This document shows positions 4,071-59,842 of a DNA stretch of 64,000 nt, piece by piece. The position numbers were made by a program, and so were the translations under genes. This stretch comes from an uncultured Gemmatimonadota bacterium. GTDB taxonomy: Bacteria > JAAXHH01. Under the pieces are notes generated by a model that worked only from the letters and a program-made list of their open reading frames with translations, made no database searches and was not told the DNA's origin. Position 1 is the stretch's first letter, and the number at the start of each line of letters is the position of its first letter. The DNA is taken from assembly GCA_951812955.1 (NCBI GenBank), contig OX638340.1, positions 1,408,001 to 1,472,000 on the forward strand, in the 5' to 3' direction.

Positions 4071-6737
4071 ATGCAAACGCGTCTGATTCTGTGTATCCCG
4101 ATCGCCTTACTTTTGCTCGCAGTTTCTGCCACCCGCGGCGCTGCCGGACCCATCCGGCCCGTGCCCGACGGCAAGGGAACGGCCACGCTGGCGCAGTCGG
4201 TCCTCCGCCTGCCGGTCGTCGCCAGCATGCTGCACACCGGCGCCCATCCCGATGACGAGAACAGCGCCCTGGTCGCCTATGTCAGCCGCGGGCTGCATGC
4301 CCGAACTGCCTACCTTTCGCTCAATCGCGGTGAAGGTGGCCAGAACCTGATCGGACCCGAACTGTACGACGCCATCGGCGTGATCCGGTCAGAAGAACTG
4401 TTGAGCGCTCGCCGTTTCGACGGGGCGGAACAGTTTTTCACCCGGGCATACGATTTCGGGTTCTCAAAGTCCGCCGAGGAAACCCTGGACTACTGGAACG
4501 GGGATGAAATGCTCCTGTCGGACGTGGTGCGCGTCATACGCCGTTTTCGTCCCGACGTGATCGTATCCGTCTTCGCCGATTCGCCCCGCGACGGCCACGG
4601 CCATCACCAGGCATCGGGGAGAATCACACGGGAAGCATTCCACGCCGCGGCCGACCCGGATCGATTCCCGGTACAACTGCGGGAAGGATTGCGTCCCTGG
4701 CAGGCGCGAAAGCTGTATATCAACAACACCCGGGCGTCCTTCGACAGCATCGATTCCCTCGTAGTCGACGTGGGAACCTACAGCCCCGTGCTTGATCGAT
4801 CGTACCGCGAACTCGGTCTGGCGGGCCGCAGCATGCACCGCTCCCAGGACATGGGGACCCTGCAGCCCAAGGGCCCGGCGACCTCCATGATCAAGCTGGT
4901 GGCGCGCGCGGGCATGGCGGATGCGGACGGAGACGCCCACCTGTTCGATGGCCTCGACACGACGTTCATGAGGCTCTATGCCATGGCCGGTCCGGATGCC
5001 GGAAAGGTACCTGGATTCACCGGTCGGCTCGGCCGCCTGGACGCGCTGGCCCGCGAGGCCGTGGACGCGTACCGTCCGCTGGAGCCGCTCGCCCTGCTGG
5101 ATCCCGTGCTGGAAGGCCTTCGGACCATCAGGACGCTTCGGGAAGATCTTGTGGAGAGTGCTCCACCGGCCGGCGTGCTAGACGACCTCCTGTTTCTTCT
5201 CGATCGGAAGGAACAGGACTTCTCCGATGTCGCGGTCCTCGCCCTCGGCATGGCATTCGAAGTGCTGACCGGCGACGACCGGGTGGTTCCGGGCGATACG
5301 CTCGGAGTGAGCCTGGCGTTGCTGAACCGCAGCACGAAGCCCGTCCGGGTCACTCGCATCGGACTGGACGTCCCGGATGGATGGACCGCGGAATCCGGTC
5401 CGGTTTCGGCCGAACCGGGGACGGACATCGGCTACAATGAAAGCCTTAAGGGGGATTGGCGGGTTTTCGTTCCTCCCGACGCCCGTCTCACCCGGCCCTA
5501 CTGGCATCGCCGCTCCCTGAACGACCGGCGGGTCGTGGTTGACGACACGGTGTTGATCGGGCTCCCCTGGCGTCCGCAGCCCGTGACTGGACGGGCAAAT
5601 GTGCTCGTGGACGGCGTAGAGATCGAAATCCGCCAACCTGCCCAGTACCGCTATGCCGACCGGGCCTTCGGTGAGATCCGGCGAGAACTGAAGGTGGTTC
5701 CCGCGCTGACGGTCGCCCTGGAACCTCGGATCGTGGTCGCCGGGGCCGGACAGGAGAGTTCTCTGCGCTTCAGTGTATCCGTGATCAGCAACGAAAACGG
5801 CGGGGTCTCCGGCGGGCTGTCACTCGAGGTACCCAAAGGCTGGGAAGTCACGCCCCGGGAATCGGCCTTGTCGTTCTCCGGGAAGGGACAGACCGCGACG
5901 TTCAACTTCAGGATACTCCCTGCCGGCGACGCGCCGGAGGGCGCTCACGAGGTACGGGCGGTGGCAAGGGCCGGCGGGAACGAGTATCGAGAGGGATACG
6001 ATGTAATAGCCTATCCCCATACCGAACCCAGGCACCTGTACCGCCAGGCGGCGTCCACCGTACAGGTCACCCCGGTCAGGCTGACGGAAGGGCTGAAGGT
6101 TGGCTACATCATGGGCTCCGGCGACCAGGTGCCGATCGTGCTGGAGCAGATGGGCGTGCAGGTGCGACTGCTGAACCGGGAGGATCTCTCAGCGACGGAT
6201 CTGGGGGCCTACGACCTGATCATCGCCGGGATCCGCGCCTACGAAGTCCGGCCGGATCTCGTCGCCGTAAACCGGCGCCTGCTGGATTACGTGGAGGCCG
6301 GGGGCGTCTATATCGTCCAGTACAACAAATACGCCTTCAACCGGAACCAGTACGGCCCATATCCATTCCGGATAAACCGTCCCCACGACCGGGTCACACG
6401 GGAAGACGCGCCGGTAAACATCCTGGTACCGGATCATCCCGTTTTTAACTGGCCCAACCGGATAACTGAAGTGGATTTCGAGGGATGGGTGCAGGAACGC
6501 GGCCTGTATTTCCTGGGAGAATGGGATCCCCGTTACAAGCCGCTCATGGCTTCGCAGGACCCGGGAGAGACGCCCAGGGCCGGCGGTCTCGTCGAAGCCC
6601 GCTACGGCAAGGGACGCTATATCTACACAGGTTACGCCTGGTTCCGCCAATTGCCCGCGGGCGTTCCCGGAGCGGTGAGACTGTTTGCCAACCTGATCAG
6701 CCTGGCGAAGCCGACCGCCGAAAACGGGAACCCGTAA
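4071..6737 (+). CDS. large secreted PIG-L/LmbE-family deacetylase with C-terminal ThuA/class-I-GATase-like domain
   Basis: Signal peptide MQTRLILCIPIALLLLAVSA. LmbE motif HTGAHPDDENSALV. C-terminal LKVGYIMGSGDQVPIV...YDLIIAGIRAY resembles a ThuA-like fold. Confidence 0.65.
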   Translation: MQTRLILCIPIALLLLAVSATRGAAGPIRPVPDGKGTATLAQSVLRLPVVASMLHTGAHPDDENSALVAYVSRGLHARTAYLSLNRGEGGQNLIGPELYDAIGVIRSEELLSARRFDGAEQFFTRAYDFGFSKSAEETLDYWNGDEMLLSDVVRVIRRFRPDVIVSVFADSPRDGHGHHQASGRITREAFHAAADPDRFPVQLREGLRPWQARKLYINNTRASFDSIDSLVVDVGTYSPVLDRSYRELGLAGRSMHRSQDMGTLQPKGPATSMIKLVARAGMADADGDAHLFDGLDTTFMRLYAMAGPDAGKVPGFTGRLGRLDALAREAVDAYRPLEPLALLDPVLEGLRTIRTLREDLVESAPPAGVLDDLLFLLDRKEQDFSDVAVLALGMAFEVLTGDDRVVPGDTLGVSLALLNRSTKPVRVTRIGLDVPDGWTAESGPVSAEPGTDIGYNESLKGDWRVFVPPDARLTRPYWHRRSLNDRRVVVDDTVLIGLPWRPQPVTGRANVLVDGVEIEIRQPAQYRYADRAFGEIRRELKVVPALTVALEPRIVVAGAGQESSLRFSVSVISNENGGVSGGLSLEVPKGWEVTPRESALSFSGKGQTATFNFRILPAGDAPEGAHEVRAVARAGGNEYREGYDVIAYPHTEPRHLYRQAASTVQVTPVRLTEGLKVGYIMGSGDQVPIVLEQMGVQVRLLNREDLSATDLGAYDLIIAGIRAYEVRPDLVAVNRRLLDYVEAGGVYIVQYNKYAFNRNQYGPYPFRINRPHDRVTREDAPVNILVPDHPVFNWPNRITEVDFEGWVQERGLYFLGEWDPRYKPLMASQDPGETPRAGGLVEARYGKGRYIYTGYAWFRQLPAGVPGAVRLFANLISLAKPTAENGNP

Positions 6738-9592: not shown

Positions 9593-10342
9593 ATGCATAG
9601 ACTCGAGGGACAGGTGGCCTGGGTCACCGGCGCGGGTACCGGCATCGGACGTGGAATCGCGATGGCCCTGGCGCGGGAAGGGGCGGACGTGATACTCTCC
9701 AGCAGGCGGCGCGAGCCGCTTGCAGAGGTTGCCGGACAGGTGGAGGCCGCAGGACGGCGCGCAGCCGTGGCCCCCATGGACGTGACCGACAGGGACCAGG
9801 TCCGCGAAGCGGTCGCCGCGGCGGAGGAACGGCTGGGCCCCGTGTCGGTCCTGGTGAACAACGCCGGCGTCAATACGCCCCTTCGCACCGCCACCGAGAT
9901 GGCGGTGGAGGACTGGGACCTGGTCGTGGACATCAACCTGACGGGTGCGTTTAACTGTTTTCGCGCGGTTTACGAACAGATGAAGGCCCGCGGCGAAGGC
10001 AACATAATCAACGTGGCGTCCATGGCCGGACGCCAGGTTTCCCTCCTAGGAGGAGCCGCTTACTGCGCGTCCAAGCACGGCATGGTCTCGCTGACCCATT
10101 CGATCAACCTGGAAGCCGCAGAATTCGGTCTCCGAGCCTGCGCCATCCTGCCGGGCGAAGTGAAAACACCCATCCTGAAAAACCGGCCCCAGCCCGTATC
10201 GGAAAAGCGTCTGACCTTGATGCTCACGCCCGATGACATCGCGAATACGGTCGTATTCGTCCTTTGCCAGCCCGCCCACGTGGTCATACCCGAGATGTGG
10301 GTCATGCCCGCCTACCAGGTATCGGCGCAGCCCCTTCCATGA
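9593..10342 (+). CDS. SDR family oxidoreductase
   Basis: [13 protein letters not shown] glycine motif. YCASK catalytic motif. Internal ATG at 9593 chosen; the track ORF 9185 is an upstream extension. Confidence 0.8.
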
Positions 10343-10436
10343 CACCCTTCCTAAGCGCGGCATCGGGTCTCTCCCAGGATCCTGGAAGGCCTGTTTGCGA
10401 TTGACAGCGACCCGGCGTTGGCGTAATTTCGAGAGG

Positions 10437-10545
10437 GCACTGAAGCCGTGTCCGGGCCTGAAGCCGTGTCCGGGCCTGAAGCCGTGTCCGGGCCTGAAGC
10501 CGCGGCCGGGCCTGAAGCCGCGTCCGGGCCTGAAGCCGCGTCGAC
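10437..10545. repeat. 18-bp tandem repeat x6 (ctgaagccgtgtccgggc, later copies gcggcc/gcgtcc variants)
   Basis: Direct reading. Immediately upstream of the first NtrC-like gene. Would encode (SGPEAV)n if translated from the GTG at 10448. Confidence 0.9.
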
Positions 10546-10573
10546 CTTTCCCTTGCCATCCACACCTTATACC

Positions 10574-12229
10574 ATGAACGGTCCGACAGAATCCGTCATC
10601 CTGCTGGTTGAAGGTTCCTCCCGCGGTCGGGACGAAAAACACTACGGCCTGACTCAGCGCGGTTACCAGGTGATCGCCGTGGAGAGCAGCGACCATGCGC
10701 TCAATGTCCTTGCCGCGGAATCCCCGGATGTCATCATATCGGACCTCAACGCACCGGGCATAGACGGTCTGCGCCTGATGGGCGTCGCACTCGGCAGGAA
10801 TCCGGAGGTCGGCGTAATCCTGACGACGGAACCCGGTTCCATGGGCCTGGCCGTCGCCGCCATGAAGGAGGGAGCATACGACGTACTGGAAACACCCGTG
10901 TACGTTGAAAAGCTCGCGGCCGAGATCGAAAAGATCCTGGACCGGCAGCGCATCGTTCAGGAAAACCGGAAACTTCTGCACCAGTTGGACAACCGGTATG
11001 GGTTCGAGAACATCGTGGGACGGTCCGCGTCCATGCAGCGCATACGAGAGCAGATTCTGCAGATCGCCGATACCCAGTCCACGGTGTTGATCTTCGGTGA
11101 GAGCGGCACTGGCAAGGAACTGGTGGCCCATGCCCTGCACCACGGCAGTTCCCGCCGGAACAAGTCCTTTGTGCCCGTATTCTGCAACGCCCTCTCGGAA
11201 GGGGTGATCGAAAGCGAACTGTTCGGCCACGAAAGAGGCGCTTTCACGAATGCGGTCAAGACGTACAAGGGACGGTTTGAACTGGCTGACGGCGGCTCGC
11301 TTTTTCTCGACGAGGTGGGTGAACTTGCGCCGTCCACGCAGGTGAAGCTGCTGAGGGTCCTGCAGGAACGCAAGTTCCAGCGGGTGGGCAACGGGAACTG
11401 GCTCAGGACGGACACGCGGGTCATCGCGGCGACGAACCGGGACCTGGAAGCCGAAATCGAAAACGGGCGCTTCCGGGAAGACCTCTATTACCGACTGAGA
11501 GTCGTGACCATCTCTCTCCCTCCCCTGCGAGAGCGTAAAGAAGACCTGCCCCTGCTGATCGATCACTGCATTCGACGCTTCAGCGAACGGGAGAACAAAC
11601 CTATCGAGCGTATCGACCCGCAGGCCCTGGAACTGCTGTCGACCTACCACTGGCCGGGAAACGTGCGGCAACTGGAGAACTGCATCGAGGGCATGATCGT
11701 CATGGGCACCGGGAAAACACTGACCGTGGAGGACGTCCCGGAATTCATACGGCATACACGGTCGGAATCTCCAGCGGTCCCGTTGAACGACGACCCGGAG
11801 CGCCGGGACGACATCTCGCCGGACTTCATCCGCTACCTGGCCGGTAAAATCGCCGAACAGCGCAATGTGCCCGTGCGAAGCCTCACCGACGGAGCCCTGG
11901 CCGTACTTTCCGCGATCGACTGGTCGGAGGACGGCGGATCGCTGCGCCGCTGTCTGGAAACCATGGTTTTGCTCGCCGACGGGGCCGCCCTGGACGTGGA
12001 GGACATCCCGGTGGAGTTTCTGCTCGTCCGTTCCGGCCGTCCTGATGAGGGTGGAGAGGACGCAGACGGGGTGGACATCAGGGTGGGCATGTCGATGAAG
12101 GAAAGCGAACGGCGGCTGATCGCTGCGACCCTGGCCGCATGCGGCCGGAACAAGGCGCGGACCGCGCGGGTACTGCAGATCGGCCAGCGCACCCTCTTTC
12201 GGAAAATAAAGGCCTATCACCTGGAATAG
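10574..12229 (+). CDS. sigma-54-dependent response regulator (NtrC family)
   Basis: Receiver domain (VILLVEG...[14 protein letters not shown]). AAA+ sigma-54 activator domain ([26 protein letters not shown]). C-terminal Fis-type HTH. Confidence 0.85.
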
Positions 12230-12232
12230 TGT

Positions 12233-13816
12233 TTGCCGAGGAGTCCCGCATTGGAAGGTCGGACGATACTTGTCGTCGACGGCGAAGAAGACAGCCGGCG
12301 CCACGCGGCGCGCATCCTGCGGGATGGGGGGTACGACGTGCAGGAGACCGGCGCCGCGGCCGAGGCGCTGAGCACGATGAGGAAGGACCCGCCGGATGCC
12401 GTCCTCATCGATCTCGCCTTGAGCGACGCCGATCCGGAACGATTGATACGCACCATTTCGGGGAAATACCCCGATATCGATATCGTTCTCACCACGCGGC
12501 AGCGCAAGGCGCCCGGCCAGTACCGCCGGCTCGACGTCAGCGACTATATCGAGAAACCGGCCGATGCCGGGGAACTGTTGACCAAGATGCGCATGCTGGA
12601 CCTGCGCCGTGAGTTTCACCGGCGGTTCCAGCTCGTTGGCAGGGACGAGCGCTTCATCGCTGCCATGGAATCGGTGCTCCAGGTGGCGCCCACGGGAATC
12701 CAGGTCCTGCTCACCGGAGAAAGCGGCACCGGCAAGGAGGGATTCGCCCGGGCGATACACCACTACAGCGATCGACGGGACGGGCCCTTCATTCCTATAA
12801 ACTGCGGCGCCATTGCCGAAGGCGTGTTGGAAAGCGAGCTGTTCGGCCACGAAAAAGGCGCGTTTACAGACGCCAAGGGCCAGCGTAAGGGATACTTCGA
12901 ACAGGCCGACGGCGGCACGCTGCTTCTCGACGAAATCGGCGATATGCCCCGTTCCACACAGGTGAAGCTGCTGCGCGTCCTGGAGCAGCAGGAATTCATC
13001 CGGGTCGGCGGCTCGACACCGGTGAAGACCGACGTCCGCCTGGTCGCCTCGACCAATCGGGATCTCGCGGAGGACATCAGGGACGGGACGTTTCGTCAGG
13101 ATCTATACTACCGGCTCAACGCGGTGAACATCCACTTGCCCGCGCTGCGTGAACGCCGCGAGGACATTCCCAGGCTGATTCACCACTTCATCCACGCGGC
13201 ACAGGAAAAGCACGGCGTGTCACCTCCCGTTTTCACGGAGGAAGCCCTGGCGACCCTCAAGGACTACGAATGGCCGGGCAACATCCGGGAACTGCGGCAC
13301 CTGGTCGAGTCCCTCGTGGTCACGTCGGGCAAATCCAGGATCGAAGCGGAAGACCTGCCGGATGCGATCTACACGCCGCCCATGGATAACCGCGCCCTGC
13401 CCGTCCCGCAGCACCGGAACCCGGATGACATGGACCGGGAGATGTTCTACAAGATCCTCTGGCAGATCCTGACCGCCATCCACGAGCTCCCCGCCAAGAT
13501 CTCCGCGGCCATTGGCGGCCGAGGCCCCGATGTGCTTCCCGATCGATTTCAACTGCCGCCCCCGGGAGAAGCGGAGCAGGACGACGGACCGCCCTCAGGG
13601 GAAGCTGGACCTGGCTTGGAACGGCCGGCCGTGGTGGTTTCGAGCGATGACGAACTGGACCGGCTGCGCTCGATGGAAGACTGGGAGCGGGAGGCCATCC
13701 GGCGGGCGCTAGAGCGCAATGGCGGGCACAGGGGCCGGGCCGCCCGGGAACTCGGCATCAGCGAGCGGTCAATCTACCGCAAGATCCGGGACTACGGCCT
13801 GGACGAATACGCCTGA
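12233..13816 (+). CDS. sigma-54-dependent response regulator (NtrC family), second paralog
   Basis: TTG start. Receiver domain (ILVVDGEED...DAVLIDLALSD). GESGTGKE and [12 protein letters not shown] motifs. C-terminal HTH AARELGISERSIYRKIRDYG. Confidence 0.85.
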   Translation: MPRSPALEGRTILVVDGEEDSRRHAARILRDGGYDVQETGAAAEALSTMRKDPPDAVLIDLALSDADPERLIRTISGKYPDIDIVLTTRQRKAPGQYRRLDVSDYIEKPADAGELLTKMRMLDLRREFHRRFQLVGRDERFIAAMESVLQVAPTGIQVLLTGESGTGKEGFARAIHHYSDRRDGPFIPINCGAIAEGVLESELFGHEKGAFTDAKGQRKGYFEQADGGTLLLDEIGDMPRSTQVKLLRVLEQQEFIRVGGSTPVKTDVRLVASTNRDLAEDIRDGTFRQDLYYRLNAVNIHLPALRERREDIPRLIHHFIHAAQEKHGVSPPVFTEEALATLKDYEWPGNIRELRHLVESLVVTSGKSRIEAEDLPDAIYTPPMDNRALPVPQHRNPDDMDREMFYKILWQILTAIHELPAKISAAIGGRGPDVLPDRFQLPPPGEAEQDDGPPSGEAGPGLERPAVVVSSDDELDRLRSMEDWEREAIRRALERNGGHRGRAARELGISERSIYRKIRDYGLDEYA

Positions 13817-13922: not shown

Positions 13923-14246
13923 GTGGGAAATCCAACAGCGATCACAGACGACCAATTCGAGACCGAAGTAATCAACAGCAGCACGCCTGTACTGGTCGAT
14001 TTCTGGGCGGAATGGTGCGGGCCCTGCAAGGCCGTCGCCCCCACGCTTGTCGAGCTGGCGGGCGACTATGACGGACGCTTGAAAATCGTCAAGGTCGACG
14101 TGGACGAAAACCGGGAAGCAGCCACCCGTTTCGGTATCCGGAGTATTCCGAGCCTGTTGATATTCAAGGACGGGGCCGAAGTGGACCGGATTATCGGCGC
14201 GCTCCCCAAGCAGCAACTCGCCGAAAAGATCGACGGTCATCTGTAG
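13923..14246 (+). CDS. trxA: thioredoxin
   Basis: WAEWCGPCK active site. 107 aa. GTG start. Confidence 0.9.
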   Translation: MGNPTAITDDQFETEVINSSTPVLVDFWAEWCGPCKAVAPTLVELAGDYDGRLKIVKVDVDENREAATRFGIRSIPSLLIFKDGAEVDRIIGALPKQQLAEKIDGHL

Positions 14247-15099
14247 CAATTATGTGTCAGTAGTGTTTTTTTTGTCCTCTTGCTTTGAGATGCGTGACCA
14301 TAGGCTACTTACATAACACCCAAAGATACTAATCTATCGTAATTGATGTATCTTAGGAGTTGTGGTGTAACCAATTGATATTTTTATATTTAAGTTAAAA
14401 ACCCATTTGAGTTCTGCCTTTGCGAGAGGCTATGTATAACTTAGGTCTAGTAATCAATTTATATAAACTCCATCAGACTACTCCAAACAGTCCATCCACA
14501 CACCCCCGTAACCATACCCTCCAGTTTTTCCGTTTCTAGCCCCACGACGCAATAAACACTCCATATAAAATCTAACGACTATTCTGTCTTCGTACCGCGG
14601 CAATGTGATCTATATCCAAGTATTGGCTATATCGGTACTGTTCTATAGATCCTTACATTTGATTCAATGGCCTAAGCACTAGCTTCTACACCGTACCATA
14701 ATACCAGATGGCGTAATATTGCGCGTCAGACTGAGTTATCGATTTGCCGTTTTAAAGACAGTATGGGGTTTTACCTGTGGTGGCGAAAATAACAACCAAT
14801 GCCTACCAGCTTGTTATTTCTACTTGATTGCAATCGTTTAAATTAAGTTTGGCTATTTATGGCGAATAAAAGTGGATATTGTCTCAAAATGATATATTAG
14901 GTAAAAATAATCAACTTTAAATTATGACAGTATAAACTGTATAAATTATTGTAATTAGATTCTATTAGTGTTGTTAATTGATTTATTCTGTATGCAGGTG
15001 ATGATATTTTGATCTTGACTTAAGATTATGGATCATTTTATTTAGTGCAGTCATAGTTGGAAATATCACATTGACCGATCATCCAGGGAGGATTACATC

Positions 15100-15522
15100 A
15101 TGGAAGGGTCAGATAGGAGAAGAGATGAGGATTATGTTAATATGCAACGCTTCGTTAAACTTGAACAAAGAGTTGAGAAGCTGGAGCTGTTATTCAACGA
15201 TAAACCATCGGTGCCAATTAAGCCAAAGAAGGAAACATTGCGTGAGTTTATTAAAGGAAAACAGCCACGAAATGATGTAGAAAGAACTATATGCATCCTT
15301 TACTACCGTGAGTTGACAGAAGGCATGGGCGAAACAACTTCCACTGACTTGAAAAATGGATTTAGGCACGCGCGGGAAAAGGTGCCAGCAAATGTATCCG
15401 CTAAACTGGGATTATGCGCTAAGAGAGGGTTCATTGACAGCGTTAGGGAAGAAAAAGGAAAGATCTACTGGTCGATAACAAATACTGGTATTGATTTTGT
15501 GGATGGGCTTAAAACGGAGTGA
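15100..15522 (+). CDS. island protein A: N-terminal coiled-coil plus C-terminal winged-helix-like module (hypothetical)
   Basis: Strong SD (gggagga) before ATG at 15100. AT-rich codon usage. C-terminal KQPRNDVERTICILYYRELTEG...DL shared with ORFs B and C. Confidence 0.65.
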   Translation: MEGSDRRRDEDYVNMQRFVKLEQRVEKLELLFNDKPSVPIKPKKETLREFIKGKQPRNDVERTICILYYRELTEGMGETTSTDLKNGFRHAREKVPANVSAKLGLCAKRGFIDSVREEKGKIYWSITNTGIDFVDGLKTE

Positions 15523-15529
15523 TGAACCT

Positions 15530-16057
15530 ATGAACCTTGTAGATATTGTTAAACAATCTGAAAATGTTGTGGAAGAAAGCAAGGTTAGTGAGGAATATCG
15601 GGCCACTGCCTTTAAAACTGTATTGGAGTTTCTATTAAGTAACAATGATCCATCGATGGACGCACATTCTTCAAACAACATTATTGTAGACCGGACTCAA
15701 GTAACTGTAGTTGAAAACGGTGATTATGAGGAACTTATAGCTGTTAAACAGCCAAAAAACGATTATGAAATCGTAGCCTGCATCGTATATCACTTAACTG
15801 GTGGGATTGTATCAAATTCAGTTACTAGAGTTGAGTTGCTAGATTACATACATCAGAACCCGGGAAACCTTAAAGGTCTTAAGAATCTGAGTGGCGTTAT
15901 TAAGCATACAAGAAGTAATCCATATTATGGATACATAGAAAATGTTAAAGATGCTGAAGAATCCAGTTTTCGACTTTCTGCTCGAGGAAAACAGTTGATA
16001 GATCGATTGCCTGGTAGAGAAGATAAAAAACGTGTAAGATCTACTACTAAAAACTGA
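15530..16057 (+). CDS. island protein B: hypothetical, paralogous winged-helix-like module
   Basis: ATG 15530 with ggag upstream, overlapping the end of ORF A. KQPKNDYEIVACIVYHLTGG...VELLDYI aligns with ORF A residues 66-100. Confidence 0.6.
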   Translation: MNLVDIVKQSENVVEESKVSEEYRATAFKTVLEFLLSNNDPSMDAHSSNNIIVDRTQVTVVENGDYEELIAVKQPKNDYEIVACIVYHLTGGIVSNSVTRVELLDYIHQNPGNLKGLKNLSGVIKHTRSNPYYGYIENVKDAEESSFRLSARGKQLIDRLPGREDKKRVRSTTKN

Positions 16058-16074
16058 GTCTACTGGAGTTCTTA

Positions 16075-16863
16075 ATGGATTTAATGGTCAAAGATGTAGA
16101 AACTATACTTGTCTCGACTTTTAAGCGAAATTATGTCCATTCCGTGTTAAATCATTATACAAAAGCAGTTGAAGGTTTTGTCTGTAGAAACTGGGATTCT
16201 GCACTGACTAATGCTGGAAAATTCGTGGAAGCATCATTGAAAGTACTATGTTCATTTACAGGGAGCGAAGTACCCGGAGGTCCGAAGTTTAAAGTTGATA
16301 AGGCTATCGTTTCTCTTGAGCAAACTAATGCAGATACTGATCGATCTGTAAGACTAACTATACCACGAGCTTGTCGGTTTCTTTTTGATATAGTCAGTAA
16401 TCGTGGCGCTCGACATGACTCCGACGAATTTACCCCATCTAAAGCAGATGCAAGTGTAGTATTACCAACTATTTCATGGATTCTTGCGGAAATGTTACGT
16501 CTAGCTAGCAGGAACGTATCTGATAGTGGTAAGGTCGAAGAATTGATTGATCAAATCACAGCAAAAAAGAACCCAATCTACGAAACTATCGACGGCAGGA
16601 CGTATGTAAACCACCCTGGACTTTCTTTAAACAAAATAGCAATGTTATTACTGTATAAAGCCTATCCTAGAAGGATTCTTAGGAGAGACCTAGCAGAACA
16701 ACTCAAACTTAATAATAGCAGTTCCAAAAAACCTGCGATCAGAATGGCTTTGACACGTCTTAAAGACATTGTGGATGAAAACGATAGTGGAATGGTTATA
16801 CGTCAAAATGGCAGAGAACAAGCTGAAACATTGATCTCCTTTATAAGTACAGACGGTCATTAA
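16075..16863 (+). CDS. island protein C: hypothetical alpha-helical N-domain plus C-terminal wHTH-like module
   Basis: SD ctggag upstream. C-terminal KIAMLLLYKAYPRRILRRDLAEQL resembles the shared module. N-domain has an NRGARHDS patch with no confident family match. Confidence 0.6.
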   Translation: MDLMVKDVETILVSTFKRNYVHSVLNHYTKAVEGFVCRNWDSALTNAGKFVEASLKVLCSFTGSEVPGGPKFKVDKAIVSLEQTNADTDRSVRLTIPRACRFLFDIVSNRGARHDSDEFTPSKADASVVLPTISWILAEMLRLASRNVSDSGKVEELIDQITAKKNPIYETIDGRTYVNHPGLSLNKIAMLLLYKAYPRRILRRDLAEQLKLNNSSSKKPAIRMALTRLKDIVDENDSGMVIRQNGREQAETLISFISTDGH

Positions 16864-16997
16864 ATCGCGAAACTGCGTTAGTGGCTGTTATGTGATACGA
16901 TAATAGTCAGTTGGAGACGGGAATGTAGCTACCTGCTCTCCCGGCTTTTGTATATGATCCGGTCTGAAGGATCGAACAGCATGCGGAGACCAGGGAC

Positions 16998-17909
16998 ATG
17001 CAGGGCGTCGTACGCAGACTGAAAGACGGTTTGGCCAGAACGCGGGACGGACTGGTACGAAGGATCGACCAGGCCGTGGGACGGTATGACCGCATCGACG
17101 AAGACCTGCTGGAGGAAATCGAATCCATCCTGCTGCAGACCGACGTGGGCATGGAAACGACCATGCGGATCATCGACGGACTGCGCGACCGCGCGGTCGA
17201 CAGCCGGACCCGGAATCCCGAAGACCTCATGAGGCTGCTCCGCGAGGAAATGGCGGGTATCCTGAGCGATCCGGCACCTGCTGAATCAGACCGCAGTCCC
17301 CATGTCATCATGGTCGTGGGCGTCAACGGGTCGGGCAAAACGACGACCGCGGGGAAGATGGCGGCGCGTTATGTCCGGGAAGGGAAGAAGGTTCTGCTGG
17401 CCGCGGCGGATACTTTCCGCGCGGCGGCCATCGATCAGCTGGAAGTCTGGGCGCGCCGGGCGGAGGCGGACCTCATCCGTCACCAGCACGGTTCCGATCC
17501 GTCGGCCGTGGCCTTCGACGCGATGCAGGCCGCCCTGTCCCGGAATGCGGACGTCCTCATCATCGACACGGCGGGCAGGTTGCACACCAAGGACAACCTG
17601 ATGGAGGAACTGAAGAAGATCAAGCGTACCCTCGGCAGGCAACTGGACGGCGCCCCCCACGAGGTGCTGCTCGTTCTCGACGGCACGACGGGACAGAATG
17701 CGCTATCCCAGGCCCGCGTCTTCAGCGAAGCCCTGGGCGGACTGACTGGCATCGCGCTTACGAAGCTGGACGGGACCGCCCGAGGCGGCATCGTGTTCGC
17801 CATCGGCGAGCAACTGGCCGTTCCCGTCAAACTCATCGGCGTGGGTGAAAGCATCGAGGATCTGCAGGATTTCGACGCCCCAGCCTTCGTGGAAGCCCTC
17901 TTCGACTGA
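16998..17909 (+). CDS. ftsY: signal recognition particle receptor FtsY
   Basis: GVNGSGKTTTAGKMA P-loop. SRP GTPase motifs DTAGR and TKLDG. Confidence 0.9.
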   Translation: MQGVVRRLKDGLARTRDGLVRRIDQAVGRYDRIDEDLLEEIESILLQTDVGMETTMRIIDGLRDRAVDSRTRNPEDLMRLLREEMAGILSDPAPAESDRSPHVIMVVGVNGSGKTTTAGKMAARYVREGKKVLLAAADTFRAAAIDQLEVWARRAEADLIRHQHGSDPSAVAFDAMQAALSRNADVLIIDTAGRLHTKDNLMEELKKIKRTLGRQLDGAPHEVLLVLDGTTGQNALSQARVFSEALGGLTGIALTKLDGTARGGIVFAIGEQLAVPVKLIGVGESIEDLQDFDAPAFVEALFD

Positions 17910-57219: not shown

Positions 57220-57540
57220 GTCGCATTCGGAGGCCAGGCCAATCGTCAAAGTCCGCGGGGCTTGAGATCTCCCGGAAAACGCGGACCGGATTCCGATTCG
57301 CACGTCGCTGTTACACTTCGCTTTAATGAATTGTAACATATACCCGACGCCCCGTAGGGTCAAGTACCGATGTACCGCCGCATGAACGGGGCCATCTGCC
57401 TCAGCCCTGGCAAACGAGGGTCCGGGGAGCCTGTTCCGGCGGGCTGCGGGAATCAAAAAAAACTTGACACAGAGCGGCTGGACTCTGATATTTTCGGTGA
57501 AATTCGAGGCACTGTCCTCGAATGGTTCGCGCAGTATCAG

Positions 57541-57611
57541 CGGGAGTAGCTCAGCGGTAGAGCATCACCTTGCCAAGGTGAGGGTCGCGGGTTCAAGCCC
57601 CGTCTCCCGCC
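57541..57611 (+). tRNA. tRNA-Gly (GCC)
   Basis: GCGGGAG acceptor stem, TAGCTCAGCGGTAGAGC D-arm, anticodon loop TTGCCAA, GGTTCAAGCCC T-arm. Confidence 0.9.
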
Positions 57612-57620
57612 CTCGGACGT

Positions 57621-57691
57621 GGCGGCATAGCCAAGTGGCTAAGGCACGGGACTGCAAATCCTCGATCGCCGGTTCGAATCCGGCTGCCGCC
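57621..57691 (+). tRNA. tRNA-Cys (GCA)
   Basis: GGCGGCA acceptor stem, anticodon loop CTGCAAA, GGTTCGAATCC T-arm. Followed by T-rich tract. Confidence 0.85.
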
Positions 57692-57731
57692 TTGCTTTTT
57701 CTTTTCTCTCCTCAGAATGCGTATCGTCGGA

Positions 57732-58424
57732 TTAAAACCTCACCTGGGCGCCCAAAACAACTCTTCGGGCATTACCCTGACCATAACGAAAATCTAAGAA
57801 TGGGACGTACGATATCCCCCTGAATTGGGAAACCGGCAGGTTCTCCCAAGTTTCTGACTTAAATACCCTGCCAGCCATTGCACCGGGCAGCCCGCCGACT
57901 AGTTGGCCCAGGATTGTATAACCGATCCAGTCACCTTTTCCCCAGTCTTCATCGGCAAAAGTAAGAAATACTGCCGCAGTGCCCAAACCCGCTCCAATGA
58001 GGTATCCCTTTCCGATGTTACTTTGCTTTCCTGCACTTCGTTCAAGCCGCGTAACTTCATTGTAGTTAAATCGCTGGATACCGCTCACACCACCACGGTC
58101 AAGTTCAAATCCTTCCGGGTCGACTCGAATGACACTTCCCGTCACCCGGTTGTTTTGATGAGTCACACGAATTCGCTGCCCTGAGTAACGATTGAATGCT
58201 ACCATCGGCCCTTTGGTGATCCTGTCGATCTCTTCCATGGAAAAAACAAACAAGTTCCCGTCTCGTGTTTCCAGTTTGACGGATTCACCAGGGATCTGTT
58301 CAACGATTACCCCCTTAATGATACTCCCATTCTTCAAGTACACGATGTCATCATTCTGCTGAGCTTGCACTTCCTCGGAAACACATAACAAGGCAACGAA
58401 CGCGATAGAAATAAACCGTAACAT
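57732..58424 (-). CDS. hypothetical secreted protein (low-GC patch downstream of tRNAs)
   Basis: Signal peptide MLRFISIAFVALLCVSEEVQAQ. ~47% GC. No family assigned. Confidence 0.5.
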   Translation of the reverse strand: MLRFISIAFVALLCVSEEVQAQQNDDIVYLKNGSIIKGVIVEQIPGESVKLETRDGNLFVFSMEEIDRITKGPMVAFNRYSGQRIRVTHQNNRVTGSVIRVDPEGFELDRGGVSGIQRFNYNEVTRLERSAGKQSNIGKGYLIGAGLGTAAVFLTFADEDWGKGDWIGYTILGQLVGGLPGAMAGRVFKSETWENLPVSQFRGISYVPFLDFRYGQGNARRVVLGAQVRF

Positions 58425-58834
58425 AGTATCTCCATATTGGGATAGTCTCGCCTTGTTGCGAATGGGTTTAGACCTTATGTATTGTATTGACCTGGTTATA
58501 AAAAAGACTCCTTTCTCCTTAATTTGTTTTCAATATCGAACTATAGTACCGTTTCATTGTGGTGAAAAGCAATAACTGCGTTGTTGAAAATCTACACTCG
58601 CTTGTCGTATAATCCTGACTTGGACGAGAACGGACCAACCATTCTACCAGGAACAAACCACCCCAATACGCGTCGATAGGCGACTGCGAGACCTGCCCGA
58701 AGAGCTCGTTGACGCTTTCATACGGGCAGCAGTCGGAAGCACTCCCCAGGGCCGTCAGCCATCGGCGCAACGACGTGGAGGCCGGCATCTTTCATTTGTT
58801 TTGTGCAAGGTAGAAGCCGGGATTATCTTATAGC

Positions 58835-59842
58835 ATGGCCGAGATCGATTGGGTTCGACGAATCTACAGTGACGGCTGGCACAACGCCTTCACGGATTTC
58901 CAGCAATTCAAGGGCCGGTATTACGTTTGTTTTCGCAACGGCCTTTCCCACGTGAGCCCCGAGGGGAAGGCGGTGGTGATCGCCAGCGACGACCTGGCCG
59001 GCTGGTCGCGAGCCGGCGTACCGGTCAACACGCCGGGCGACGACCGGGATCCACACATGGTCGCGACCGAAGACAGGTTGTTTGTCTACGCCGGAAGCGT
59101 CACCCGTCCCGACCCTGGACTTACCGGCAACGACGTGGTCCGTGTTATTCGGACCCATGGTGTCTACACTCAGGACGGGGAGACCTGGTCCGATCCCGTC
59201 AAAGTCTACCGGGACGGATTCTGGTTGTGGGGTGTTGGGCGTGGAAATGACCGGTTCTACGGGCTCGCCTATGGAAACGTATCTACGGAAGGGAGTCGGA
59301 AACCGCCCGAGCTTCACCTCGTGCAGTCTACCGACGGGCTGGACTGGGAGCTTGTTTCCGTAGTCACGAAAAACGGGAGTGAGGCCACCTTCCGGATCAC
59401 CGCTAACGGCTCGATGCGCGTAGCCATCCGGGGCGGCGACGAGAATCGGTTCACCCTGGCCACCGCAAGACCCCCGTACACAGACTGGAGTCTTCAGGAC
59501 TTCGGTGAAGTGATCCCGTCACCGTTTCTTGTGGAAGTCGGCGGTGCCGAATACGTGATCGGCCGACAACACGTGCGCGGTCCAGGCGGTCCGGACGATC
59601 CAGGCGATCCGGCGGTCCGCGACCACATTGTCGACAGGCGGACGAGCATCTGGCGGGTGGAGAGCGGCGGAATCGTCCATGTCCTGGATCTGCCTTCCGG
59701 GGGCGACACCTCCTATGCGGGAGTCGTCCAGCAGGAAGACGGATCGCTGCTGATCAGCTACTATTCGCAGCACGAGGTGGAGATAGGTGAGAAACACTAT
59801 CTCTACCCAGCCAACATATATATGGTCCGGGTCAGGCTGTGA
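58835..59842 (+). CDS. BNR/sialidase-like beta-propeller protein (glycoside hydrolase-like)
   Basis: Repeated beta-strand blocks. Resembles exo-alpha-sialidase/BNR-repeat-like family proteins. No signal peptide seen. Confidence 0.45.
   Translation: MAEIDWVRRIYSDGWHNAFTDFQQFKGRYYVCFRNGLSHVSPEGKAVVIASDDLAGWSRAGVPVNTPGDDRDPHMVATEDRLFVYAGSVTRPDPGLTGNDVVRVIRTHGVYTQDGETWSDPVKVYRDGFWLWGVGRGNDRFYGLAYGNVSTEGSRKPPELHLVQSTDGLDWELVSVVTKNGSEATFRITANGSMRVAIRGGDENRFTLATARPPYTDWSLQDFGEVIPSPFLVEVGGAEYVIGRQHVRGPGGPDDPGDPAVRDHIVDRRTSIWRVESGGIVHVLDLPSGGDTSYAGVVQQEDGSLLISYYSQHEVEIGEKHYLYPANIYMVRVRL

Follow-up and report, generated by a model that had tools for sequence, protein, structure and literature searches.

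The 64,000-nucleotide stretch of DNA analyzed here, referred to below as the window, comes from an uncultured Gemmatimonadota bacterium (GenBank assembly GCA_951812955.1, contig OX638340.1, positions 1,408,001 to 1,472,000 of the forward strand). Between trxA and ftsY it carries a small AT-rich island with three genes, A, B and C, the last of which encodes a predicted HEPN ribonuclease (RNase) fused to a winged helix. The island occupies positions 14247-16912 on the plus strand, as delimited by its G+C (GC) profile, by relatives with an empty site and by one relative with the identical island (L087). It is the sole strongly AT-rich stretch of the window, with a GC content of 0.26-0.44 from 14247 to about 16912 against about 0.62. 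Seen along the sequence, the profile runs at 0.53-0.69, drops to 0.26-0.44 (14200-16900) and regains 0.57-0.63 by 16900-17100; in 1-kb steps across all 64 kb the island gives 0.38-0.42 and everything else 0.49-0.68. Third codon positions show the same contrast (GC3 0.26-0.41 in A, B and C versus 0.80-0.86 in the flanking ftsY and degT). The left junction is the exact end of the host trxA (13923-14246, plus strand; Pfam Thioredoxin, E 3e-33), and the members of the 90% cluster of this TrxA are named Gemmatimonadota thioredoxin. The right junction falls between 16913 and 16935, ahead of ftsY (16998-17909, plus strand; Pfam SRP54, E 4e-76, plus SRP54_N). The initial annotation had proposed an AT-rich island at this place, and the GC profile and the Pfam-identified flanks bear it out.

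Genes A (15100-15522, 140 amino acids, aa), B (15530-16057, 175 aa) and C (16075-16863, 262 aa) are co-oriented on the plus strand and separated by only 7 nt (A-B) and 17 nt (B-C). A GGAG-type Shine-Dalgarno sequence can be read 7-10 nt 5' of each, in agreement with the three same-strand open reading frames (ORFs) first annotated. The stop/start overlap that had been assigned to A and B does not hold: the TGA of A ends at 15522 and B opens at a conserved ATG at 15530, the resulting MNLVD... start being common to all orthologues, and an overlap would arise only if an unsupported in-frame TTG at 15491 were used. These three are the only ORFs longer than 70 aa in the island, all without a Pfam match, and the island encodes neither an integrase nor a transposase. 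No tRNA gene lies within 40 kb of it, and border repeats of at least 12 nt are missing from its ends. The recombinase, the tRNA or att target and the direct repeats of an integrase-borne genomic island are thus all missing, as ORF, Pfam, tRNA and repeat scans agree with the initial annotation in showing, and the compact three-gene cassette stands as described, without a recombinase of its own. A weak border motif, TTATGTG...GTCAGT, had been noted at both ends; we rejected it as an att site since two diverged island copies (L075 and L077), whose right junctions differ too, do not contain it at their right ends, and it is most likely due to chance.

Protein C is the predicted effector. Its AlphaFold (AF2) model, built on 82 homologues, reaches a predicted local distance difference test score (pLDDT) of 92.5 and joins a helical N-terminal domain (aa 1-162) to a C-terminal winged helix (aa 169-260); the assignment of the N-terminal domain to the HEPN fold is a prediction with good support. 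HEPN domains carry an Rx4-6H motif at the end of helix 3 or the start of the helix-3-to-helix-4 loop, and a second conserved acidic residue in helix 2, usually as Ex3[KR] (Anantharaman et al. 2013, PMC3710099). The second hallmark is present in C as E52-x3-K56 (16228-16242, plus strand) in the helix spanning residues 40-61; it is invariant in the 82 homologues, which are 36-80% identical, and its Glu is invariant also in a set of 51 distant relatives. At the end of the helix spanning residues 90-112 lies N109-R110-G-A-R113-H114-D115 (16399-16419, plus strand), in which N109, R110, G111, R113 and H114 are invariant among the 82 homologues and D115 is nearly so. Since the conserved residues fall at the published motif positions, the 'NRGARHDS patch' that the initial annotation had picked out in a helical N-domain of about 160 aa can be read as the HEPN active-site motif of a predicted HEPN fold. 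Aligned by hhalign with the 51 distant relatives, the window's clade pairs YDIaSNRGARH with YdiRnkRGvaH, from which it follows that the wider family has the canonical R-N-x-R-G-x-A-H (Rx6H) and that the window's clade moved one arginine. At the level of modelled fold and motif, C therefore appears to belong in the HEPN superfamily, with the Rx4-6H spacing not strictly kept in its clade.

Curated libraries did not name any of the three proteins, and the first reading of the locus had likewise assigned none of them to a named family. C has no family at E ≤ 1 in Pfam, PADLOC or NCBIfam and a chance-level match in PHROGs (E 0.29), A and B match nothing in the same four libraries, and the PDB holds no sequence relative of C. 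Nor do the 51 distant relatives match a curated HEPN or Abi family or any other Pfam, PADLOC or NCBIfam entry. The family is nevertheless sizeable: one search returned 254 homologues of about 255-265 aa, and an exhaustive profile search returned 964 clusters at 50% identity, with E ≤ 1e-10 for 680. Homologues are nearly all of the same length, and none carries a Pfam domain.

The AlphaFold model of A, built on 26 sequences, has an N-terminal helix (aa 15-33) followed by a winged helix with a pLDDT of about 90 over aa 47-135. B occupies the slot directly upstream of C and is, on sequence comparison, a paralogue of A: the two match in BLASTP at E 3e-6 over a KQP[KR]ND..CI.Y motif, their similarity is visible at the DNA level too (repeat D2), and the B homologue of locus L001 can be aligned with A (115 aa, E 3e-6). 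Iterated hidden Markov model (HMM) searches moreover merge A, B and the '131-aa' family that adjoins C in other phyla. The A/B family reaches only E 0.01 against the winged helix of C in profile-profile comparison, and the models of A and C suggest a link at the level of the fold only. The three-helix core and beta-hairpin wing of a MarR/PadR-like winged helix-turn-helix are present, so that the winged-helix C-termini first proposed hold for A and C in their models; of the accompanying idea that all three proteins are paralogues sharing one C-terminal module, the A-B relationship survives and the inclusion of C by sequence does not.

To place the island in a wider context, we collected 71 loci with C homologues from species-representative genomes, all metagenome-assembled, added further loci by exact look-up, and defined operons by our own ORF calling and HMM iteration. 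The 71 loci come from Acidobacteriota (the most), candidate phyla radiation (CPR)/Patescibacteria, Proteobacteria, Nitrospira, Gemmatimonas, Verrucomicrobia, Omnitrophota, Aminicenantes, Rokubacteria and Bdellovibrionales. C closes a same-strand operon and has one (12 loci), two (30), three (12) or four (4) small genes upstream of it; no conserved gene was found downstream. Its direct neighbour usually belongs to a family of about 140 aa into which both A and B of the window fall; farther upstream there are one to three copies of a family of about 115 aa and sometimes one of about 138 aa. The consensus sequences of the 115-aa, 138-aa and A/B/'131' families are all winged-helix-like, and hhalign finds no significant link among them. 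The presence of several winged-helix proteins, which the initial annotation had considered unusual, is the rule across this operon family and not a peculiarity of the locus. In L001 and L096 the arrangement is a fusion of a 138-like protein with A, followed by B and C, and the L001 proteins are 46%, 45% and 52% identical to A, B and C of the window, respectively. Operon GC content lies below that of the flanks in 58 of 69 loci and never above it, and in several loci (L069-L073) C is broken into fragments. One member of the small-protein family (P0162, 137 aa) is encoded by a cultured acidobacterial isolate, Granulicella sibirica, a possible experimental host.

The only neighbours that recur are DNA methylases, subunits of restriction-modification (R-M) systems and serine recombinases. 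Of about 70 loci, at least 11 adjoin type I, II or III R-M operons or are embedded in them, which in our informal judgement is far above the level expected for random genes. In L006 and L028 the operon is embedded in a type I system in the order hsdR-hsdM-[operon]-x-hsdS on one strand. L011, L032 and L067 share the order [operon]-type III Mod-DUF3800-Res, with L012 having the same Mod at a contig end; the DUF3800 protein itself lies between Mod and Res in L011 (L011:4360-5037), directly downstream of the operon, and its slot is taken in L032 and L067 by small ORFs of unknown family (136 and 107 aa). An Eco47II-type type II R-M system lies directly upstream of the operon in L097, type I genes adjoin it in L009 and L023, type I/IIG genes and a PIN gene accompany it in L001, and L065 has a LexA-S24-methylase fusion gene. 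A serine recombinase lies upstream of the operon in L002 and L009. Near the aroA-linked cassette of L096 (L096:11629-13872) there are a FitA-like ribbon-helix-helix antitoxin pair and a reverse-transcriptase (RVT_1) gene; the related L001 has its type I/IIG R-M genes, the PIN gene and a YopA gene at the corresponding place. Homologues were found in no phage record or viral contig, a result that is neutral for a role in defence and uninformative about the trigger, and the single plasmid match is a distant HEPN-only archaeal relative on a Natronomonas plasmid, no other plasmid copy having been found. A phage or plasmid origin thus has no support.

Relatives of the host were found by looking up contigs that encode the window's TrxA or a near-identical one, in line with the initial suggestion that trxA-ftsY synteny be compared in search of an empty site. 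Such a site, consisting of trxA, a GC-rich spacer of 170-290 bp and ftsY, is present in 14 of the 16 relatives' loci fetched (L079-L086 and L088-L094, the trxA-ftsY region of L080 being interrupted by a scaffold gap). FtsY is 97-98.7% identical to that of the window in seven empty-site relatives, and the island is therefore strain-variable; among the relatives fetched only L087, with FtsY at 99%, carries the same island. The empty sites, together with the GC3 contrast, support the horizontal acquisition that had been proposed. The empty spacer is made up of one to five GC-rich repeats of about 40 nt and the trxA terminator. In the window everything from the first base after the trxA stop into that terminator has been replaced, and the 3' half of the terminator (CTCTCCCGGCTTTT) is kept. 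It forms part of a terminator-like hairpin with a T-run (16916-16949, plus strand; junction comparison, stem read by eye), whose 3' half is identical to the trxA terminator of the empty-site relatives and which our terminator scan omitted because its loop is 16 nt. The ~40-nt repeat (GGGCTCGGACAGGCGCAGCC...GGCGAGGCGCGACC), located at about 5325-5600 in locus coordinates in the spacers of L088-L094, does not occur in 14247-16912 of the window; its copy number varies between near-identical strains, and the island replaces exactly that array.

Diverged A-B-C islands are present on three further contigs. L077 spans both flanks and has its island between trxA and ftsY as in the window, and L075 and L076 show the same junctions at the ends of their contigs. 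All three islands are AT-rich (GC about 0.40) within GC-rich flanks. Their A, B and C proteins are 72%, 79% and 80% identical to those of the window in L075, and 70%, 65% and 69% identical in L076 and L077, where FtsY is 85% identical. The ratio of nonsynonymous to synonymous divergence (dN/dS) is 0.05-0.20 for each of A, B and C, which marks them as functional genes under purifying selection. Synonymous divergence (dS) between the window and L077 is 1.3 to >3 in the island and 0.49 in ftsY and degT; the island alleles therefore predate the split between the hosts' flanking genes, which speaks for exchange or re-acquisition at the site and not for simple vertical descent. Vertical co-divergence with the host as the sole explanation was rejected on the basis of these dS values and of the closest relatives, which lack the island. 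The simplest possibility is that the cassette moves by homologous recombination through its conserved flanks. Diverged alleles (dS >1.3 against 0.49 in the flanks) occupying the same spacer without a recombinase hint at a trans-species presence/absence polymorphism kept AT-rich by selection, or else at targeting in trans. Elsewhere in this neighbourhood, L091 has an MmeI-like type IIG R-M gene (L091:8117-10324) after degT, where most other fetched relatives have xdhC, and the trxA-ftsY-degT neighbourhood is therefore a variable hotspot in the lineage.

Upstream of A the island begins with a gene-free, AT-rich spacer (14247-15004, strand unassigned) that is non-conserved and has no detectable function; over the whole leader, 14247-15099, no ORF exceeds 41 aa. 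The leaders of the window, L075 and L077 are alike in length (806-872 bp). That of the window cannot be aligned with L077 and aligns weakly, at its ends, with L075, and only the last ~100 nt align between diverged copies. A three-way alignment of the last 200 nt reveals a promoter-like block (15005-15060, plus strand) about 85 nt upstream of A, with a T-tract, a TTGACT -35 element at 15015-15020 (TTGAC(T/A) in the alignment), an 18-nt spacer, a -10-like TATTTA at 15039-15044 and a conserved GTCATA at 15052-15057. From its pattern, which is not evidence of function, the block is a putative sigma-70-type promoter with a possible operator. A consensus promoter scan finds no excess of promoter-like sites; it omitted the TATTTA block because its rule requires a T at position 6 of the -10 element. 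We rejected a structured non-coding RNA or riboswitch here: at E ≤ 1 an Rfam scan of the island returns nothing in the leader and a single chance lncRNA match inside gene A, 14247-15099 has no excess RNA folding energy (z = +0.78), and there is no conservation with L077. Nor is there support for the idea that the leader derives from a ruined operon gene, for instance from the extended N-terminus of the 319-aa A homologue of L001 or from the '138-aa' gene that comes first in L002, L004 and L019: tblastn and HMM searches of six-frame translations of the three leaders find no remnant of operon genes. The window's upstream gap is the longest among 56 loci measured (median 210 bp), and a long leader is therefore not a feature of the system. 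What remains of the ~850-bp promoter/leader originally proposed is a gene-free stretch with about 100 nt of promoter-like sequence at its end; a conserved functional leader it is not, the rest being unalignable.

Taken together, these observations lead us to favor, with a probability of roughly 55%, the reading that the island is a horizontally acquired, self-contained conflict cassette of the HEPN-RNase toxin or abortive-infection type with winged-helix partners, its function being inferred. The operon family is widespread and often found beside R-M genes, so a toxin- or defence-type module is most likely. The defence, abortive-infection or addiction module of the initial annotation has thus gained real support from the predicted HEPN fold and motif and from repeated R-M adjacency. 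A latent-RNase logic has been proposed for R-M-linked HEPN proteins (PMC3710099), and HEPN toxins are known to follow it. Along such lines, A and B would bind C, and possibly the promoter too, keeping the RNase latent; a trigger, which could be an infecting phage, the cassette's loss or the breakdown of an adjacent R-M system, would release or activate C; and C would then cleave cellular or invader RNA, leading to growth arrest. The winged helix of C might target the nucleic-acid substrate or dock the partner proteins, and the cassette would spread among related strains, most simply by homologous recombination via the conserved flanks.

Several observations weigh against this reading. The R110-x3-H114 spacing of the window's clade lies outside the published Rx4-6H range, and the canonical first Arg of that motif is replaced in the clade (V/A-S-N-R-G-A-R-H). 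AF0298 (PDB 2hsb), the best structural match, is a member of a HEPN group whose active site is atypical (PMC3710099). The immediate neighbours are mostly unrelated housekeeping genes and not those of a defence island, at this locus included, and A, B and C are all without a PADLOC, Pfam or NCBIfam model. Finally, the fusion ORF that counts in favor of a conserved operon is a single case (L056:7566-8732), in which a B-like small protein and the HEPN-winged-helix protein are joined in 388 aa; this could be a genuine fusion, in which case it would support physical interaction of the partners, or a frameshift or assembly error.

Part of the same evidence would serve a purely selfish toxin-antitoxin (TA) module, with C as a HEPN toxin and A and B as labile antitoxins or autorepressors that ensure post-segregational killing and have no anti-phage role. 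Small, tightly linked, co-directional genes, patchy presence among strains, frequent decay of C and a stand-alone position among housekeeping genes, here and in most loci, all fit such a module, and the HEPN evidence for C applies to it without change. However, the repeated location within R-M operons of types I, II and III is more typical of genes linked to defence, a simple two-part TA system would not usually have as many as four different small partners, and plasmid copies are missing except for the one distant archaeal HEPN-only relative; we consider this explanation unlikely, if far from negligible. It also strikes us as rather improbable that C is a non-catalytic HEPN protein that binds a ligand, RNA or protein and acts jointly with A and B in regulating transcription or mRNA, the adjoining R-M genes being one possible target. 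HEPN does act as a binding module in nucleotidyltransferases, MtlR and Roquin, and a winged helix is present in every component modelled or inspected. Some HEPN families have lost catalysis (PMC3710099), and the window's clade lacks the canonical Rx4-6H spacing. Yet R110, R113, H114, E52 and K56 are invariant at 36-80% identity, which is not expected in a purely binding domain, and the wider family keeps R-N-x-R-G-x-A-H; the cassette, moreover, is mostly without R-M genes to regulate and behaves as strain-variable cargo.

Very improbable, finally, is the view that a larger mobile element, such as a prophage or integrative element, has decayed here, leaving the 850-bp spacer as the wreck of its other genes and the three ORFs without function. 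The upstream gap is indeed long, gene-free, non-conserved and unmatched in length among the measured loci, no recombinase is left, and L002 and L009 have the serine recombinase upstream of the operon. The idea is largely refuted by the intactness of A, B and C at dN/dS 0.05-0.20, and further opposed by the A-B-C order kept in three diverged copies and in L001/L096, by a spacer free of operon-family gene remnants and by the lack of similarity to phage records or viral contigs.

Three further features of the window lie outside the island. Just after adjacent tRNA-Gly and tRNA-Cys genes (57540-57692) the GC content dips to 0.49-0.56 (57540-59000); a 230-aa minus-strand ORF (57732-58424) whose N-terminus resembles a signal peptide lies in the dip, which may be a second small acquired islet. 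Upstream of trxA lies a gene for a sigma-54-dependent response regulator (12233-13816), and the relatives have two tandem response-regulator paralogues of 551 aa and 521-557 aa (L079-L094:1550-4894). A 934-aa minus-strand ORF opposite this region (10046-12850) is probably an ORF-caller artefact of high GC content.

Cas13, Csm6, many toxin-antitoxin pairs and several abortive-infection systems have HEPN RNases as their effectors; every new mode of HEPN control has so far been informative, and some have been turned into useful tools. The family to which C belongs is sizeable, spans many phyla including the poorly understood CPR, and has been missed by every curated library checked. Its pattern is that of a fixed effector with a partner set that is apparently all winged-helix and varies in number. 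A broader proposal, which we hold tentatively and at somewhat less than even odds, is that these operons, which form about 960 clusters at 50% identity from CPR to Acidobacteriota and Gemmatimonadota, constitute a previously undescribed defence system of broad phylogenetic reach in which a HEPN RNase-winged-helix effector is governed by one to four winged-helix sensors or inhibitors, often riding on R-M operons as a second line of defence. If the partners do sense invader DNA or proteins and gate the RNase, a HEPN effector would be controlled in a new way, and R-M-linked back-up immunity would be documented concretely outside model organisms. The presence of the cassette in some strains and its absence from near-identical ones offer a natural experiment on its cost and benefit at the population level. 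Interest would be higher still if the partners turned out to add a sensing or gating layer that is new, or if a targeting mechanism lay behind the recurrent occupation of the spacer by diverged alleles.

We found no description in the literature of a HEPN-winged-helix effector with multiple small winged-helix partners, and PADLOC-DB v2, the newer defence catalogues lying outside the check, has no model for the operon. Several known systems resemble it in part. Like the HEPN-MNT (HepT-MntA) type II TA modules, the operon would pair a small, growth-arresting HEPN RNase with co-transcribed partners that hold it in check; unlike them, A and B have no nucleotidyltransferase match, the partners here being winged-helix proteins, the HEPN domain is fused to a winged helix, and the partners come first and the effector last. 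With the lactococcal Abi HEPN proteins (AbiD/F, AbiJ, AbiU2 and AbiV) it would share the single-effector logic of abortive infection and the character of low-GC mobile cargo, but C has no PADLOC or Pfam Abi match and is part of a multi-gene operon. The stand-alone HEPN proteins of the AF0298/TT1696 type (PDB 2hsb, 1ufb and 1wol) are only 11-16% identical to C, have no winged-helix fusion and show a different pattern of conserved residues. The HEPN-ROQ arrangement of Roquin, which is eukaryotic and non-catalytic, with HEPN split around the winged helix and no evolutionary link to C, serves as an analogy only, for RNA binding by a winged helix.

A further comparison is with the R-M-linked HEPN RNases, that is, the PrrC and RloC anticodon nucleases, ApeA and the EC042_2821 family (Anantharaman et al. 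2013, PMC3710099). These proteins have no small partners, whereas C always has one to four, seemingly winged-helix ones; C has no sequence match to any Pfam HEPN family, and the window's clade shows the R-x3-H spacing. In contrast to PrrC and RloC, C at 262 aa contains no ABC ATPase, and the R-M embedding that recalls them is seen in L006 and L028 and not at this locus; in contrast to EC042_2821, it has neither a restriction endonuclease domain nor a Zn-ribbon. What C has in common with the R-M-linked group is the predicted HEPN fold with an acidic Ex3K and an R...H at the end of helix 3, the location of members of its operon family in or beside type I, II and III R-M operons and, with EC042_2821 in particular, the fusion to a winged helix.

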